Shown here piece after piece: positions 53,719-62,353 of a DNA stretch of 64,000 nt. The stretch lies in the NCBI GenBank assembly GCA_000182565.2, contig KQ257452.1; one strand, written 5' to 3'. Source of the stretch: Spizellomyces punctatus DAOM BR117 (Eukaryota). Numbering within the stretch: the first letter of the stretch is position 1; every line of letters starts with the position of its first letter. Made by a program: the position numbers and the translations under genes. The notes under the pieces are model-generated. The model searched no databases, was not told the DNA's origin, and worked only from the letters and a program-made list of their open reading frames with translations.

Positions 53719-54546
53719 GAAATAGGCTATATGCTCATATAGCAAATATCGATACCTTGGTGAATGACTTTTTTTCATGGGCAATATTCAGGTTTACAAA
53801 CAATAAGTATTCTCCTTTACCAAGGGCCGTGGACCTGATGAGCCGAACGGTACTAGGCGGTAGGTGGTGGCACCAAAAGAACAATGCAAAGATGTTAAGG
53901 TTTACATCCCATTCTTCCAAGGGACAAGGGGCAATTTCCAAACAGCAGAATCAGTGATGAATACTTAACATAAACCCTGGAAGGCCTTATAGTGATAACA
54001 AAATCATGTGTTATGGACTAGTACCCCAAAATGACTTGCCATGGTAAACAAACGAGCCAAACCTGGCATCCACTCCCTTAACGTGCCCATGCTTCACCCT
54101 GCTGAGGCACACACAAATCTACGAGTGTCATATTTCTTTGCACATGCCGATTTTGTCGATAAATACCAGCGGTCTTCCTCTGCAGGGTCATCGGAATACA
54201 AATATCACATTCTCGGTACCCAGCAGTGGCGCTCCAACTGAAGCCATTCACGATCGGAGGTCACCGACCAATGGTCAAAATATGGGCATCGGTAAATGAG
54301 ACATGAATGGCAACTTTAATGACTGGGATTCCATATGATCCTAAGGCATCTTGATATGCGCATAGTTGATCCACTTGATTGAGGTAAACTTTGAATGCAA
54401 AATCGTTATAGAGTTTTCGAGGACTGATGAATGCTACCAGTTCATGTTCATAGATCGTCAATTATAAAATCCTACAAAATGTGGCCTACCGCTTTTGACC
54501 CTGTTCAGCGACTCTCTTCAAATACTTTCAGAGAGCAGAAGCCGTT

Positions 54547-57500
54547 ATGTCATTGATTAAGAGGAACTTACTGATTCTGCTAGGATGGATATTGGCCAGT
54601 GTACCTGTTGCGCGAGGGCGACAGTGCAATTGGACATTACCGATTGGAGTAATTAGTCCATCTACCATGGGATACTTCAACCAGTCTCATTCCGCATACA
54701 GGTTGGCAGCAGAAGATTTTTTGGCCACCGAAACGAATTTACCAGATGTATGCGTAGTAAGTTGGATGATAGAGAGTTTGCTTTTACCTATTGGCCGTCA
54801 GACCTTTTGTTTAACAGACCATCTCCCCTAGGAATGGCACTACGCAGATTCAAAAGACGGTGCAGGACCAGCGTTGTTAGATACGATGAATTTCATCCAG
54901 AACAAGAAGATCGTCGCCCTACTGGGAGACATTTTTTCGTCGGTCACCATTTACGAAGCCTTACTTACTGGTGTTTTAAAGGCTAGTAGAAAATCATGTT
55001 CAAGTTGGCTTTCAGATGGATGCTCATATTATCTTTTATGTGATCTCTCTTTTGCTTCTCCTTTCTATTTCTCCGCCGATCTAGATACCCCAAAGTTCGT
55101 TTGATTCGGCGAGCGAAAAGCTTTCAGATAAAACCAATTATCCCTTCTTTTGGCGTACCCTTCCTCCCTCATCGGTGGTAGTTGAAAACTCAATTCCCTT
55201 GCTAAAGGTAATCTGCGGCATGAGCGAGTTTGGTTTTGGAATATAAGATTATAATTGTTTTCTTTGTCCTTAATTTCTTTGTCCTTAAGCATTTTGGTTG
55301 GAACAAGATTGCTATGATATATAATTTGGACGATTTTGGGACGCCAGCTGCAGAGTCAGTTCGTAGACGCTTTAGCTCCCATACGGACATCACTCTCCTA
55401 GGGTTAATTGGAGCCTTCCACGACGGCACAGAGGAGGATGTACGGCTTCATGTTATTTAACTATGACGTCCAAAATTTCTAAAGCTTCCTTTCTATGATC
55501 AATAGGTTGATGGGGCTCTAGACCAACTACTGGCTCTGCACGCAAAAGTTATTGTGACAGGTAAAGATTCAAGTAGCTCGAGCAATACAAGTAGGAAGAT
55601 AATCGATTGTGCTCCCGCAGTTGTCTACTCGGAATGTCTTGGTCCACTGATGCTACATGCACGGCAAAAGGGGATGACGGGGCCAGAATATGTTTGGATC
55701 AACGTCAATTTGTACACGGGCTTAGATGGTGCCGACACCAGCGTTTCTGTCTTACGAAGTGCGTTTGACGATCGCCTTGTGGATTATGACATTCGTGGCA
55801 CAATGTACGTATGAACCAGTTATCGCGCTATGTCGCCTGGCATCTACGCTGACCAAGTATTCATAATATGTGCCTTTCGCTAACCTCTGTTCTACTCATG
55901 ATGTGCTGCAGAGTGCTTGCAGCAAGGACGGACGTGATGGCTGGCTATGCGCCTAATGATGCTTTCATGACCAAGTGGATGGCATTGAATCCAAACGTAT
56001 ACCCCGGCGTAGTGCCCGGACAGCCACCCATATCCGGGATTGTGTATGTTCATGTCAATGTCTTGATCTGTATATTTCTTCTGTTTCCAAAGACTAAATC
56101 TCTGGTTACCCAGTAAGGCATACACGTCAGCCTATGTGCTTCTCCTAGGCATCCATCAGGCGACATTTGGACCAAACGCAACGACCACCATTGGCGACGT
56201 TGTCAACCGCACCGCGGGAGATGCACTAATGCCCAGCACCTTCGCTGACACAGGGTTTATCTCCCCAGTTGGTGCATTCAAATTGGATGCGAACGGCGAC
56301 GGCATCACGTAAGAAGATTATGCTCTTCAGTGGATGTGTGACTGGCTGCATATAACCGGAAATTCTATAGTCGCCAACGCATCAGCATATATATTGCAGA
56401 CGCAGACACAGCCGATCTTGGATATATTGAGAACGGCAATTTCCACCCTACTCTTGCTGATATACCATGGAAAGTGCCCTACGGTGCGGACTGGAGCACC
56501 ACAAAGATGGAACCTCCCGTTGGGTTCAGTAAGTTTGTTTGATCTCACTTTCTCTTCAAACGAACCTATTGGTTAACTCTATACCATCGTGCGACTCTAG
56601 TCTATAATGAGCAGTACGTGAAATGGGACGGCGCCGCGATAACAATCCTTGTACTGTTTTCGGCTGGTATTCTTGTGAACTGCGTCATTGGTGCCTACCT
56701 AGTTCGACATGTGCACAGTGCACCGGTGAAAGCTGCCTCACCCGTCTTCCTTTCTCTCATGTGGCTTGGATACTCCTTGGTTCGCTGAGCACTTTTTGTA
56801 TTCACCTCGGAAAAGTTTCAAACGCTTCAATGTTCATTAGGGTTACATATCTCCATTCTTCCGAATTGGCAAGCCGACGTTCGCAAGCTGCCGCGCTAGC
56901 TACTGGATTGAAGTCATTCCTTTTGGTCTTGTGATGGCACCGCTGGCTGTCAAAACGTTCCGTATTTGGCGGTGAGTGGTCCTTTCGGGTGGTTCTTCCC
57001 GGAGAGGTCTCGGTAATAAATCATACATGATTTAACAGGATTTTCGGCAATCGCAAGGCAAAGACCCTCCGTCTCTCTGACTCGCTCTTGCTTCAATTGG
57101 TTGGAGCTATCATGAGTCTCAACGTGGTACATATCACATTCCTGTTTGTCCAGAACACGTCTTCAATCCATCTAAACCAATACTATTCTTATAGCTCTTG
57201 CTCATTGTCCACACAGCATTTGGCAATGTCGGTCCAACCGTCACTCCCGATGATAGTCAGGCCACGATGGCGTATGCATGCGGGTCCACCAATGGTCGAG
57301 AAAGTGTCATCTCTGGTATAGGAGCTGCATTGGTCGCGTACAATGGGATCGTGGTATTATGTTGCACCTACTTTGCCTTTAAGACGCGCGGGGTTGTTGC
57401 ACGTAAGTAGTCGACAGGGCTTTGAGACGTACGCTGGGCCCAATTTAAGCGTCGCTGCTAATATCTACTTATCGAACAACAGGATTCAGCGAGTCAGCCT

Positions 57501-58393
57501 ACATTGGAATCTCCGTATACACCACGCTCCTTTGCAGCGTCTTTATTCTGGTTATTGACAACATTCCCGGGACGACTGTCATGATCCATTTCTTGATCCG
57601 TGAGATTGTGCGTTACTTTTTGTGTAAAACTCTCTGGCAAGAACCCGGCTTACCATTATCTTGTCGTGGCAACAGCTCATTTTGATCATGCTCCTCACAA
57701 GTATGAGTGCTCTCCTAGGAAAGGTGGTCGTTATGAACCTCTCCGGAGGTACAACTAAGGACGGCACTGTTGCATATGCTGGCGGCAACCAGATCAAACG
57801 GACAGGAGATGCAAGTGGTACTGGAAGCATTAATAAAACCGGAAGTCTCCATCGGCAGAACGGCTCCACATCAGGACAGGGGAACAATCTTGTAAGTGCC
57901 GAAATATCCTCAACATGTCAACGGTTAAGTATGGGATTAATTTAAAACAATTTCCTCAAAAACCGCAGATGGCAGTATCTCAGGACTTTAGCGTCATCAA
58001 CCTTAGCAAATGGGTCAACAAATGGGAGCCGGCGACAATCATTCTCCACACGGATGGTGTTTTTCCATATATCCTATTGAAAATTGGCAAGGTCTGTTAT
58101 CCACATTTTTACCGTTTGTCCTCGCCAACTTGTCAGGATTAACAATTATATCCTATCAGGACATGATTGCCATGGAACTCAAGGATACATTCTGTGATGA
58201 TTTTGAAGGTGACCGCGAGTGCTTTAAACTACACGACAACCATGGACATTCCTTCCGTGTGCAAACACGATCGTCAACCGAAAGACAAAATTGGGTCAAG
58301 CAGATCAAGATGCAAATTAGAACGACCACTGGGGAATCGACCTCTGGTTTGGTTATGCCGTCCTCCACCTCTCTCAAACCAACGCAGGTGTAA
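54547..58393 (+). CDS. Class C (GABA-B/glutamate-like) GPCR: signal peptide, Venus-flytrap (ANF receptor) domain, 7TM and C-terminal PH-like domain; many exons
   Basis: VALLGDIFSSVT; IPQ...LSDKTNYPFFWRT; HFGWNKIAMIY; GMTGPEYVWI; FKLDANGD; 7TM motifs VKAASPVFL, KTFRIW|RIF, AFKTR, FSESAYIGISVY; tail ...FRVQTRSSTERQNWVKQI. Confidence 0.85.
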
Positions 58394-58845
58394 GGTCAAG
58401 GAATATTTATTTGATAAGAACGTAGCAAAGTGAATTGTTTCGTTTCGTTCAAGTATGAGATTATAGAATGTTTGGGAAATTGTGGCCAACTATTGTTCTG
58501 CAATCGAATAGATGCTTACCATTTTGGTATCATTATTAGTACACTCCATGAATTGAGTATGGTCGTATACTAGCATTATAGACAGTTGGTAGCAGGTGTC
58601 ACTGCGACGGATAAGCCGAGATTTCGCTTTTATATCTGCAATATATTATCGCTTGCTGTTGCGACCGCTACAGGTGAAGTGGGATATTCCTCTGTTTTTG
58701 TTTATTTTGATCTTCACACGTGACTTGCTTACTGTACTAGTACTAATTGCTGTCAATGGCCAAGAGTCAAACGCTTGCTTTTTAGCATCTCGCGACGACG
58801 CTGCAATCGTCTTTCACCGAGCGCGACCTCCGTCGGCAAGGCAGA

Positions 58846-61443
58846 ATGTCCGACAAAGCACTCAATAAAAAACTAAAGGACATATCGGCACGCATTGACT
58901 CCATCCGCCTGGATTGGGATGCCCTTCGCAAGGAACTGAGAACGAACCTTTTGACAGATCCTGAAACGGCTCATATTTCCAGGGACTGGGCTCAGTTTGT
59001 TTTTAAAAAACAGTTTGGGCAGAATGTTGCTGGATCTGCTGTGACGACGGAGGCAGAGGCGGAATCTCCTACTGGGTCTGACAAGATGCGAGATTCTGTT
59101 GCCAAATTGCGGATTCGGCTGGGAGCCAAGATACGCTCGTCAGTGTCTCGAGAGGGTACTCAACAGGGAGAAGCCACTGCGAGTGGTGGAAAGAAGAAGC
59201 CACCAACATGCGCGGAAGAGATTGCACAGATAGTGGAAACATGGATTGCGGCGAAACAGGACCCAGCGGATATATCAAGCCAATTTCGTCCCCTGGATCC
59301 CGGAAAGAATCTATCTGCGCTACTCGCTGCCAACGCCACACATAGCAATCGAACGGTGGCGGCCCTGTGCTCTTTACCTCGTTCGCTAGTCAAGGAAAAA
59401 ACAAACAATTACAAACTTCCCAAGGAAGCAGTCATGCATTTGCACTGGTTTGAGACGCCTGTCGATACTGGTTTAACTCCGTCGGTTCCAGTACCCAGCA
59501 AGCTTGATCTTGACATATCCTCCCTCAACGAATCAATTGAAAAGCACGGACAGTCTCATAAAACGTCGTTGGAAAAAGATCTAGCCGACGCTTGGGATCC
59601 AGTCCGACAGGTATTGCGCGGTCTCTTACAAGTTGAGTGCGAGCAGAAACGGATATTGACTGTAGAGCTGGCCAAACGCGTCAACGAGTATTCAAGGAAG
59701 TACGCTATTGCGTTGAGAAATTTTGATGAGTTCTGGAATTCCAAAACGGAAAAGTGGAAAAAGAAGGGTGGGAAGAAAAATGGAGCTGCGAACGGTGTGG
59801 ATGAGGGCGCTTTGGCAGAGGAAGCCGATGCCTTGTTTGAGCAATATATTGAACAGATCAAAATAGTAGCGGACGCGTACGCCGAGGAAGTCTTACAGCC
59901 CATTTTGAGTGAACTGCGACGTGCTGTGGAGACGTATGAATCGTTGCTTTCGGACCTTTTAAAATCCAGTGATTTAGATCCCAATGAATGCGAGCGTGCC
60001 AGACAGGCGATATCTGGACTGGGGCGTCGCACAGAGGAACATATCGATGAGTTTCTGAGGAATGAAAGCAAATCCCGCGCGTCCTTGACATGTGCCTTGA
60101 GTGATATGAAAGACTCGTACCTGGAAGGATCCATGAAAACGCTTTGGGGACGACTCGAAAAATGCTCTAATCGCGATTTTCGAAAGCGGATAGCCAACAT
60201 GGAAGCAGACCAGCAAAAGGAACGGGACATGCTTTCCACCGTTCTTGTGTCTGACGTGGCTCCCTTTTCATCAGTCGCGGTTGTCTGCTTGGTTGTCCTG
60301 GAGTGCCTTCTTGTCAAAGGAGAACGCTGTGAAGAGGAGGCGCTACTCAAGCACAAGACGTCTCTTCAGTCGGACGTCAAACTCCAGGAACTGGCCATTA
60401 CTCGAAAGACATTGGAAGGATACTATGAAACTGGAGTCTTTAGTGGGCAAATAGAGCTTGGGAGAAAGATTGGCCGCGTATTATGGTCGGTAGTCAAACA
60501 ATCTATGGAGGCGGCTATGGAATCGCAAGTGGTAGCTTACATCTCTAAAAGCGGTGGTGGTAAGTCCGCCGGTTCTGCTGCATCTGCAGAATCGGGCGCG
60601 AATGCCGTTGATGAGGATACTAAAAAGAAGAAGAAGAAGAAAAAGAAGGCCAAGACAGGAACGGGTGAAGCGGGGGCAGCGAATGTGGATTCAGTGACAC
60701 CACCGATTGAAGAGCCGAGTGGATCACCGGCGAGCACCGTCCCGGACACACCAAAGGAAGACGAGAGCGATTCACTGGAGCAGGTTGCTTCCCCGATCAA
60801 CGGAAAAGCTACCAAAGAAGAAGAAGCTCTGCGACCTGAAAAGGATGTTCCTCCTGTCAAAGCAAACTCTGTCGAGCACGTTTCACCAAGTCCGAAAGAG
60901 ACAATGAGCGTCCAAGAGAACGAGGAAGTGGATCTGGATCTATCGCAGATAGAGTCTGCGATAGGAGATGTCATAGTTCCTGTCGGCGGTCTTACTGGAG
61001 CACGCCCATCAGGACCGCCCGGATTTACTGGTACTGGAATGTGGGGCGGTAATAATGTATTCCCCTTTTCCGTTCCAGCGTTTCCCATGAACCATCCTCT
61101 CAATGGCATGTCATCGCCCACAAGTCAGGAACTGGTTTCTCTCCGCGACGAGAACACTTCTCTTCGGAACGAAAATACCCAACTCCGAAGGGAACGCGCC
61201 GCCCTGGAAGAGCAACTCCGCGCCGCTCAACACACGATATCGCATTTTATGCAGCGCATGCGCGGTCTAGAGTCCCAAGAGAGTGTGAAGCGCCCTGGTT
61301 ACAACAACTGGAACCGACGGACTGCTGTCAGTTGTGGGAATTGTGGAGAGCGAGGGCATGAAAGCACCGCTTGTGATGCTGGGTGTCGGTATTGTTCTTC
61401 AAGGGAGCATTTGAGTGATGTATGCCCTTTACTTGTCGTGTAA
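58846..61443 (+). CDS. Intronless 865-aa hypothetical protein: helical/coiled coil, poly-Lys tract, two C-terminal CCHC zinc knuckles
   Basis: Long uninterrupted ORF; KKKKKKKKAK; CGNCGERGHESTAC and CRYCSSREHLSDVC (CX2CX4HX4C) at 61333-61425. Confidence 0.75.
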   Translation: MSDKALNKKLKDISARIDSIRLDWDALRKELRTNLLTDPETAHISRDWAQFVFKKQFGQNVAGSAVTTEAEAESPTGSDKMRDSVAKLRIRLGAKIRSSVSREGTQQGEATASGGKKKPPTCAEEIAQIVETWIAAKQDPADISSQFRPLDPGKNLSALLAANATHSNRTVAALCSLPRSLVKEKTNNYKLPKEAVMHLHWFETPVDTGLTPSVPVPSKLDLDISSLNESIEKHGQSHKTSLEKDLADAWDPVRQVLRGLLQVECEQKRILTVELAKRVNEYSRKYAIALRNFDEFWNSKTEKWKKKGGKKNGAANGVDEGALAEEADALFEQYIEQIKIVADAYAEEVLQPILSELRRAVETYESLLSDLLKSSDLDPNECERARQAISGLGRRTEEHIDEFLRNESKSRASLTCALSDMKDSYLEGSMKTLWGRLEKCSNRDFRKRIANMEADQQKERDMLSTVLVSDVAPFSSVAVVCLVVLECLLVKGERCEEEALLKHKTSLQSDVKLQELAITRKTLEGYYETGVFSGQIELGRKIGRVLWSVVKQSMEAAMESQVVAYISKSGGGKSAGSAASAESGANAVDEDTKKKKKKKKKAKTGTGEAGAANVDSVTPPIEEPSGSPASTVPDTPKEDESDSLEQVASPINGKATKEEEALRPEKDVPPVKANSVEHVSPSPKETMSVQENEEVDLDLSQIESAIGDVIVPVGGLTGARPSGPPGFTGTGMWGGNNVFPFSVPAFPMNHPLNGMSSPTSQELVSLRDENTSLRNENTQLRRERAALEEQLRAAQHTISHFMQRMRGLESQESVKRPGYNNWNRRTAVSCGNCGERGHESTACDAGCRYCSSREHLSDVCPLLVV

Positions 61444-62353
61444 CTATACCGTATATGCCTTTTGTTGGGCGTGGCCATATTTTTCTTTTTTTAATTTTTG
61501 CAAAAACTGTGTGCACTTGTATATACATATTGCTAATACTACATGATTCTTGCGCTCGTTGTAACTCATCTCGTGTCAATGGGGTGTAGAAGTGGAACAA
61601 CAGCCATCGTTTGCCAGAATAAACATAGCATGTTGCACCCTTGCGTCGTCAAATCATTTCGGAGCATGTCCGATAATGTCCGATTTGCCTCTGTTGTTCA
61701 CGTGATAAAATGATTGGAATGATGTATCTCTTTCCTGATTGGCTGGATTAGGAAATGAGCAGTTCCAGAAACTTTTTTAATTTTCATCCAATGATCGATC
61801 TTTTATCTTTTTTTTTTTTTAATGATGATTTTTGCATGTGAGGTTTGTTTGGATTCATGGCGAATATAAAAACGAGGTTTGGAGGGATTTTGCCCTTTGT
61901 TGGCCATTTGGAACATTATCTACGCATCGCTTGACGCTTTTTCACAACGGATCGCTGATCGTATACGAATATTGCTGAACGCAAACCACAACAACAAACG
62001 AGAAATAACGACCGGATCTACATCTATAAAGCCATGCCAGCACCAAAGACAAATTCAACCATCCTGCGACGTCTCTTTTCCACTCGCTCAAATACAAATA
62101 CACAACCACAAACAATCAAACCGATGCGTATTCTGATGACGGGAGGTGCAGTCGTGCTGGCTGCACAGATTGGTAGCGAAATCCACTAGAATGTACATTG
62201 TATATATATACACACCCGCACACCACATAATTTATTTTTTTGTACGTTGGGGGAGGGAGTTGGGGATACCCAAAGTAATAATACATAACGAGTCTAAAGA
62301 GTTATGATGAACAACATCTATGAAAGCAACAGTATATGATACTTTTTGGAAAT

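Follow-up and report, generated by a model that had tools for sequence, protein, structure and literature searches.

Organization of the gene and its receptor part

The stretch of DNA analysed here (the window, 64,000 nucleotides of contig KQ257452.1 from the chytrid Spizellomyces punctatus DAOM BR117) contains at positions 54547..58393, on the plus strand, a split gene for a class C G protein-coupled receptor (GPCR) whose cytoplasmic tail is predicted to form a PH-type fold. The gene was assembled by scripted joining of exons from stop-to-stop reading frames in the raw sequence, which yields 17 exons and 16 introns; the spliced coding sequence of 2661 nucleotides (nt) is a single open frame of 886 codons followed by a stop at 58391-58393. 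Two orthologous proteins serve for comparison, that of Spizellomyces sp. 'palustris' (P0002; 887 amino acids, 88% identical, running from an M-S-L-I-K-R-N start to a final Val) and that of Borealophlyctis nickersoniae (P0007; 888 amino acids, with 54% identity and full coverage when compared with residues 440-887 of P0002). The features of the gene are the following.

54547..58393, plus strand: whole gene; spliced frame, equal to the public protein over amino acids 170-885 and collinear with the orthologues of 887 and 888 amino acids
54547..54618, plus strand: signal-peptide-like N-terminus, approximately amino acids 1-24, with K/R, a hydrophobic run and V-A-R-G; hydrophobic window at amino acids 1-22
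54547..56528, plus strand: exons 1-9, Venus flytrap (ANF_receptor); Pfam matches on an orthologue and on the N-truncated public protein
56601..57741, plus strand: exons 10-15 (first part of 15), class C seven-helix domain; 7tm_3 match, hydrophobic windows and five RNA-confirmed introns
57742..57891, plus strand: G/S/T-rich cytoplasmic linker, amino acids 719-768, extending three codons into exon 16; assigned by composition
57892..57968, plus strand: intron 15, the link between receptor and tail; GTAAGT...CCGCAG, 77 nt, phase 0, present in the public model
57969..58091, plus strand: exon 16, strands 1-4 of the predicted PH fold including the K-W-x-N-K-W-E hairpin; AlphaFold2 strands and invariant columns
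58092..58159, plus strand: intron 16, within the predicted PH-fold domain, 68 nt, phase 0; RNA joints
58160..58330, plus strand: first part of exon 17, predicted strands 5-7 and the C-terminal helix with an invariant Trp; Pfam PH and hidden Markov model alignments
58331..58393, plus strand: last 20 amino acids, predicted to be disordered, with S-T-x-G-L, the terminal Val and the stop; predicted local distance difference test score (pLDDT) below 50, invariant S101, T102, G104 and L105

The ATG at 54547 is the earliest in-frame ATG downstream of a stop, and the S. 'palustris' model shares this N-terminal start. Both gene ends given by the first-pass annotation, 54547 and 58393, are exact, as judged from the open spliced frame, the first in-frame ATG and the position of the stop. 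The tail peptides that it quoted are present in exon 16 (57969-58091) and exon 17 (58160-58393) at exactly the coordinates assigned to them, and the exons join, as it had proposed, into an intact signal-like N-terminus, flytrap and seven-helix domain in one frame of 886 amino acids with ANF_receptor and 7tm_3 matches. The G/S/T linker that it described is also real, with G, S or T at 25 of 53 residues.

The introns measure 60-107 nt, and 15 of the 16 are of the GT-AG type, the remaining one being GC-AG. This GC donor, at 54982, is required for intron 2 to give the V-L-K/I-P-Q junction found in Borealophlyctis. At the same intron (54982-55084, donor AAG/GCTAGT) the S. 'palustris' model has two added residues (A-S) at the junction. 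Intron 5 (55561-55620) is 60 nt long, in frame and stop-free, and its retention would add 20 Ser-rich residues to the flytrap; it is spliced out in the public model of the locus, and a matching insertion is found in neither orthologous protein. A donor at 57600 was rejected for intron 14, as it breaks the frame, and 57608-57675 was used instead.

Pfam scans find both receptor domains that had been proposed, in the public protein of this locus (SPPG_09004) and in the full-length S. 'palustris' orthologue. The 7tm_3 family (PF00003) matches SPPG_09004 with 126.9 bits (cutoff 33.5) over profile positions 5-245 of 251, and ANF_receptor matches residues 48-402 of the orthologue with 107.6 bits and the N-truncated SPPG_09004 with 28.7 bits (cutoff 25.4). 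The signal-like segment at the N-terminus and the helices stand out as hydrophobic windows, except for helix 2, which lies below the threshold used. The cysteine-rich spacer NCD3G is not listed by Pfam for the S. 'palustris' orthologue even at E <= 10; this spacer is typical of metabotropic glutamate (mGlu), calcium-sensing and taste receptors and is absent from GABA-B receptors, and hence is not obligatory in class C. The closest solved sequences are mGlu1, 7, 2, 3 and 5 (E 5e-27 to 1e-23), followed by GABA-B2 (E 3e-18) and the calcium-sensing receptor (2e-15). Judged by its sequence, with both class C domains found, the gene is that of a class C, metabotropic-glutamate-like receptor; as a class, such receptors dimerize and couple to heterotrimeric G proteins.

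RNA evidence was taken from four public runs placed on 54300-61600, with about 6% of run X10 read. The joints of RNA contigs match 6 of the 16 introns (56780-56840, 56972-57038, 57127-57194, 57403-57482, 57608-57675 and 58092-58159), including the intron inside the tail, which is supported by a contig joint from each of the runs X3 and X2 and by a single raw read of X10; the other 10 introns, intron 15 among them, lie outside the RNA coverage. The intron at 56780-56840 is confirmed in spite of an unusual GTTCGC donor, and at acceptor 57482 the RNA joint is printed one base over, which is compatible with the stated ambiguity of one base. A contig of run X3, the RNA label of which is guessed, spans 55817-56042 without a joint through most of intron 6 (55805-55911) and differs from the window at two bases (G>A at 55940 and A>G at 55988); it may reflect intron retention, DNA carry-over or another strain. 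Run X10 is 3'-biased, with a depth of 0 in 57716-57959, 3.66 at 58204-58447, 1.04 at 58448-58691 and 0.08 in 58692-59179, and its depth rises again at 61132-61600, where a poly-A loose end lies at 61564. This pattern, at thin coverage, fits one mRNA that ends a few hundred bases past 58393 and a separate downstream mRNA.

The last exon, used as a query, retrieves P0002 and SPPG_09004 of Spizellomyces punctatus DAOM BR117 (P0001), a protein of 1601 amino acids that is 100% identical to the exon. It equals the present model over amino acids 170-885 (716 identical residues, 14 introns in common). SPPG_09004 begins at an internal Met in exon 4, so that the first 169 amino acids including the signal-like segment are absent; at the other end of this model, an intron placed at 58389-58785 removes the terminal Val and the stop codon, so that it continues in the open frame that follows. 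Because the 3' reads show separate ends at 58.2-58.7 kb and at 61564, the protein is judged to be fused to its neighbour, and we regard the public model as N-truncated and fused, and thus wrong at both ends. The downstream frame (58786-61443, plus strand) is an uninterrupted open reading frame of 885 codons in which a Met lies at 58846. It is rich in segments that resemble coiled coils or contain runs of Lys, and its last approximately 40 residues show Cys/His spacings resembling zinc knuckles; no significant Pfam family is found in it, the best being GAS (E 0.0028, below cutoff).

Conservation and predicted fold of the tail

The Borealophlyctis protein is collinear with the Spizellomyces proteins over the whole length, signal peptide and final Val included, and the tail is kept in all three species. 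Between Spizellomyces and Borealophlyctis the identity is 48% in the flytrap, 67% in the seven-helix domain, 14% in the linker, 47% in the PH-type region and 37% in the last 19 residues; between the two Spizellomyces species it is 96% in the PH region and 65% in the linker. Since the tail retains 47% identity between the genera, compared with 14% for the linker, it appears to be under selection. The three linkers contain 40-47% G+S+T and 13-18 Ser/Thr, and the start of the tail models has pLDDT below 50. On this comparison, the tail is a selected and presumably folded unit behind a freely evolving, Ser/Thr/Gly-rich linker.

Profile searches indicate the type of fold. Searched alone, the tails match Pfam PH (PF00169) with 25.0 bits (S. 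punctatus, E 2.8e-5), 27.0 bits (S. 'palustris') and 20.7 bits (Borealophlyctis) against a cutoff of 25.1, and the match on the S. punctatus tail covers the C-terminal half of the profile only (positions 49-105 of 105, on 58160..58330). The next Pfam families on this tail are SOS1_NGEF_PH, PH_6, PH_9 and PH_alsin, and PH-type families also come next in rank for the S. 'palustris' tail (three) and the Borealophlyctis tail (one). Pfam lists no catalytic family at E <= 10 for the S. 'palustris' protein or tail. When PDB sequences are searched with a profile built from the three tails, the PH domains of beta-spectrin, ARHGEF28, ORP11, pleckstrin, GRP1, SOS1, Tiam1 and APPL2 are retrieved at E 0.008-1, in a list that also includes Argonaute-2 chains and one uncharacterized protein at E of approximately 0.6-1.1. 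The alignment to pleckstrin covers tail residues 16-97 and places W19 at the strand-2 Trp and W86 at the helix Trp. W86, which corresponds to the helix Trp in the alignments to beta-spectrin, ORP11 and pleckstrin, is invariant in all three tails, as are the hydrophobic positions of the core.

The structure models agree with this assignment. The PH superfold is a beta-sandwich of seven strands that a single C-terminal helix closes, with a conserved Trp in that helix. In the AlphaFold2 model of the S. punctatus tail, six strands (residues 7-16, 20-27, 35-39, 42-47, 60-67 and 72-77) and a bridge are followed by a helix (80-98), and seven strands and a helix are predicted when the Borealophlyctis tail is the target. 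Compared with 48,161 chains by VIA-align, the S. punctatus model reaches a best Z of 9.1 (three chains at Z >= 8), and the Borealophlyctis model a best Z of 11.8 with a root-mean-square deviation (rmsd) of 2.2 over 97 residues (168 chains at Z >= 8). The best 50 chains of each search are PH, PTB, EVH1, Ran-binding or FERM-F3 proteins, as far as they can be named. The ESM Atlas model of the S. 'palustris' protein matches PH-domain clusters over residues 773-872 at template modelling (TM) scores of 0.77-0.82; in 8 of the 10 matches listed the aligned part is a named PH-type family, and the other two are a PLEKHN1 cluster and a RhoGEF cluster. The matches listed by Foldseek for the tail are nearly all PH-containing proteins with weak E values.

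The modelling therefore bears out the PH-like tail suggested by the first-pass annotation, with PH-superfold matches in both AlphaFold2 models and weak Foldseek matches (best E 0.015). Of the claim that a class C GPCR carries a C-terminal PH-like domain, the architecture stands, given the near-threshold Pfam scores, the structure models and the conservation in three species, and the fold itself stands as a prediction. At the level of the fold, a PH-type tail is supported by the models, in which the structural features of the PH superfold are found. It is highly probable that receptor and PH-fold tail belong to a single gene.

Only three proteins with this tail were found, those of S. punctatus, S. 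'palustris' and Borealophlyctis nickersoniae. A phmmer search of the tail against 1.84 billion representatives gave five proteins at E <= 0.001, among which the orthologue cluster alone is real; the four other matches, tandem-repeat, FN3 or cadherin-like proteins aligned in several short stretches and containing no PH family, were rejected as compositional. A profile of the three tails returned the same three proteins among 2104 longer candidates, and metagenome scans with the tail alignment and with the full-length alignment gave no match; these searches depend on shared words or patterns, and absence elsewhere is not shown by them. A feature-based search of the ESM Atlas with the tail gave no usable match, and within the 64-kb window tblastn detected the flytrap, the seven-helix domain and the tail only once each. 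One lead came from the ESM Atlas, in which a cluster of 67, mostly chytrid, ANF_receptor and 7tm_3 proteins (representative of 1012 amino acids) aligns structurally, with 334 residues, over 455-877 of P0002, exceeding the matches to the seven helices alone by approximately 66 residues and reaching into the tail region. This hints, as a lead only, that further chytrid class C receptors may carry a folded tail.

Proposed role of the tail and alternative readings

The reading that we favour, at a probability of approximately 0.55, is that of a class C receptor with a PH-fold tail serving as a built-in docking or regulatory module. In the proposed arrangement, the secreted Venus flytrap would bind a small ligand and would be joined directly to the 7tm_3 bundle without a cysteine-rich spacer, and a flexible Ser/Thr/Gly-rich cytoplasmic linker of approximately 50 residues would tether the PH-fold domain of approximately 95 residues, followed by a short disordered end in Val. 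The PH fold would offer a docking or regulatory surface for a protein, with G-beta-gamma, a small GTPase or a scaffold as candidates, and would keep this partner at the receptor or release it upon rearrangement of the receptor dimer. The invariant K-W-x-N-K-W-E hairpin would be the likely contact site, and further control of the kind usual for receptor tails would come from the Ser/Thr-rich linker and a possible PDZ ligand.

Protein docking is favoured as the job of the tail because the seven helices already anchor the protein, which makes recruitment redundant, and because the basic phosphoinositide signature is absent; we place this assignment a little short of even odds. A more specific version, which we put forward tentatively and consider doubtful, is that a chytrid lineage of class C receptors would possess its own PH adaptor, holding a partner in cis that is released or engaged when the dimer is activated, with G-beta-gamma, a small GTPase or a lipid-dependent effector as candidates. 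A prediction of a tail homodimer (2 x residues 1-100) gave 0.18 and 0.20 against a mark of 0.32, in runs with no controls folded and the tail alignment unused, and thus speaks neither for nor against pairing.

The end of the protein may contribute a further contact. After the helix, an invariant S-T-x-G-L lies in a segment with pLDDT below 50, and all three proteins end in Val (T-Q-V, S-K-V and A-L-V). The T-Q-V and S-K-V ends of the two Spizellomyces proteins fit the class I PDZ-ligand pattern, which the A-L-V of Borealophlyctis does not clearly do. A second docking signal behind the PH fold is thus possible from the sequence.

Features of the tail surface, of the junction between receptor and tail, and of the fold scores weigh in turn against a receptor with a built-in docking module. 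Nowhere is the tail better conserved than in the hairpin of strands 1 and 2, L-x-K-W-x-N-K-W-E, in which KW[VI]NKWE was picked as the best pattern and in which the loop joining the two strands has approximately three residues in the S. punctatus model. PH domains usually bind lipid at this hairpin, and that of the tail, with two Lys and two Trp, occupies the usual position of the lipid head group. The tail may consequently be read as a lipid sensor, the hairpin of which contacts phosphoinositides of the inner leaflet or inserts Trp into the membrane, so that the local lipid state would pin or release the receptor tail and tune signalling or trafficking. The invariance of the hairpin columns speaks for this possibility, and the PH domains of Akt, ARAP3, TAPP1, ArhGAP9 and CERT are among the tied structural matches; these matches are, however, tied across lipid- and protein-binding PH domains and do not discriminate between them.

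Phosphoinositide-binding PH domains carry a K-Xn-(K/R)-X-R signature across strands 1-2 and have a face of positive charge. This signature is not found in the tail, where strand 2 begins with W-E-P-A (W-E-T-A in Borealophlyctis) and an invariant Glu directly follows the strand-2 Trp. The counts of K+R and D+E in the three PH regions are 13/13, 13/13 and 11/13, which corresponds to a net charge of 0 to -2, and the isoelectric points (pI) are 6.9, 6.8 and 5.6. Of the lipid- or G-beta-gamma-binding module that the first-pass annotation suggested, canonical phosphoinositide binding is weakened by the missing signature, the net charge and the pI of 5.6-6.9, and the receptor is already anchored in the membrane and has no need of recruitment. 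A noncanonical contact with lipid or membrane through the Lys/Trp hairpin, by way of K14, W15, K18 and W19 of the tail, remains, from the sequence, a serious rival to protein docking; as an account of the tail, lipid sensing is nevertheless held here to be rather unlikely.

The junction between receptor and tail raises the possibility that the tail exons lie outside the receptor protein, either as a small gene starting at ATG 57969 or because intron 15 is retained, in which case the frame stops at 57945 and the receptor ends there. Intron 15 (57892-57968) is crossed by no read or contig, the contigs ending at 57844 and beginning at 57979, and the tail exon opens with an ATG (57969-57971), all three species having a Met where the tail begins or close by; this conserved Met could be a coincidence or an internal start that gives a free PH protein. 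The public model, being wrong at both ends, illustrates that gene models are fallible at this locus. On the other side, intron 15 has a consensus GTAAGT donor and CAG acceptor in phase 0 and is used in the public model, and the join is in frame in the models of all three species, which are collinear across it despite a linker of 14% identity. Merely 77 nt would be available for a terminator and a promoter, and the 3' reads of X10 peak once (58204-58691), at thin coverage, with no mRNA end before the tail. The placement of tail and receptor on one mRNA, which rests on gene models and conservation, is thus very likely, and a tail separate from the receptor is improbable.

With respect to the fold, the S. 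punctatus tail lies 0.1 bit below the curated PH cutoff, and within whole proteins the PH scores fall to 19.6 bits (SPPG_09004) and 22.2 bits (S. 'palustris'), with Borealophlyctis unlisted at E <= 0.01. These low whole-protein scores, or the lack of a listing, explain why the database entries of the three proteins list only PF01094, PF00003 and PF13458 and leave the PH domain unannotated. The AlphaFold2 confidence is modest (mean pLDDT 60.8 and 59.4, from an alignment of three sequences), and none of the 500 Foldseek matches counted against PDB for the tail reaches E <= 0.001, the best, at 0.015, being the PH domain of ORP11. That the tail is a decaying or neutral appendage in which a PH-like pattern of strands and helix arose by chance, as the score just under the cutoff, the modest confidence and the lack of any phmmer relative beyond the orthologue cluster might suggest, is nonetheless very improbable in view of the 47% identity across genera (the level of the flytrap and well above that of the linker), the convergence of three independent structure predictions on the PH superfold, and the invariant helix Trp and core hydrophobic positions.

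Comparison with known receptors and implications

Animal mGlu receptors, which provide the best solved matches, have the same plan of signal peptide, flytrap and 7tm_3 as the chytrid protein. The chytrid receptor differs from them in that NCD3G is not detected, as in GABA-B receptors, and in that its cytoplasmic part is predicted to contain a folded PH-type domain. The tails of animal mGlu1/5 recruit the PH-superfold adaptor Homer EVH1 in trans, and Homer EVH1 is among the tied fold matches of the tail models. No class C receptor with a PH-type tail was found in the Pfam listings, Atlas clusters or open-access literature searched, and no report of a GPCR whose own chain contains a PH domain was found in the main texts of open-access papers and preprints.

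The S. punctatus gene belongs to the Glutamate-family GPCRs of zoosporic fungi. According to the main texts of the sources, receptors with ANF_receptor and 7tm_3 are enriched in Chytridiomycota and Blastocladiomycota (Krishnan et al. 2012, PMC3251606; 'class 16', PMC12842992). These main texts discuss N-terminal domains, and neither contains 'PH domain' or 'pleckstrin'; across the main texts of PMC3251606, PMC12842992, PMC12716839 and PMC5784254, 'PH domain' is absent and 'pleckstrin' occurs solely in the expansion of DEP. The GPCR-bigrams of oomycetes and Dictyostelium likewise combine a seven-helix receptor and a C-terminal intracellular signalling domain in one chain, which couples the receptor to phospholipid or G-protein signalling; in the main texts describing them, which mention neither chytrids nor PH domains, a catalytic accessory domain is required, for example PIPK, INPP, AC, PDE or TKL (PMC6033456, PMC5784254). 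The chytrid tail, in contrast, would provide a class C receptor with a small binding fold that is not catalytic, and it falls outside the bigram definition.

Two PH domains of known function invite comparison with the tail. GRK2, the example of G-beta-gamma binding given by the first-pass annotation, also brings a PH domain to an activated GPCR, but on a soluble kinase that is recruited in trans, whereas here the domain would lie within the receptor. The PH domain of GRK2 contacts G-beta-gamma by its C-terminal helix and an extension of that helix. Several GRK2 entries are among the Foldseek matches (E 0.04-0.25, TM 0.43-0.51), and because they are tied with many other, unrelated PH domains, these model-based matches say nothing specific on G-beta-gamma. 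The top match of both tail models is the Ral-binding PH domain of Exo84 (1zc4_B), which binds a small GTPase and not lipid (Z 9.1, rmsd 3.7 and 96 aligned residues for the S. punctatus model; Z 11.8 for the Borealophlyctis model). Its sequence is 12-20% identical to the tails and it lies within 1 Z unit of many PH domains, and as a comparison of models the match implies no specific relationship or binding of a GTPase.

Class C receptors are among the best-studied drug targets, and their tails are seen as disordered strings of short motifs to which folded adaptors, for example Homer EVH1, PDZ proteins or the PH domain of GRK2, are recruited in trans. A PH-fold tail on such a receptor is apparently an undescribed addition to a known kind of receptor, kept in at least three chytrid species. 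In practical terms, both ends of the public gene model are wrong here, and none of the three database entries annotates the predicted PH domain. A receptor with a PH-type module built into its tail would indicate that the adaptor arrangement can be hard-wired and, if it held a partner in cis as tentatively put forward above, would constitute a short-cut from receptor to effector of a kind that animal class C receptors are not known to have. Since Spizellomyces punctatus is transformable, the gene may offer a tractable case for the role of a PH module beside an active seven-helix dimer. Such a receptor would also be a non-catalytic addition to the receptor-effector fusions of protists and would bear on how GPCR signalling was organized in early fungi.

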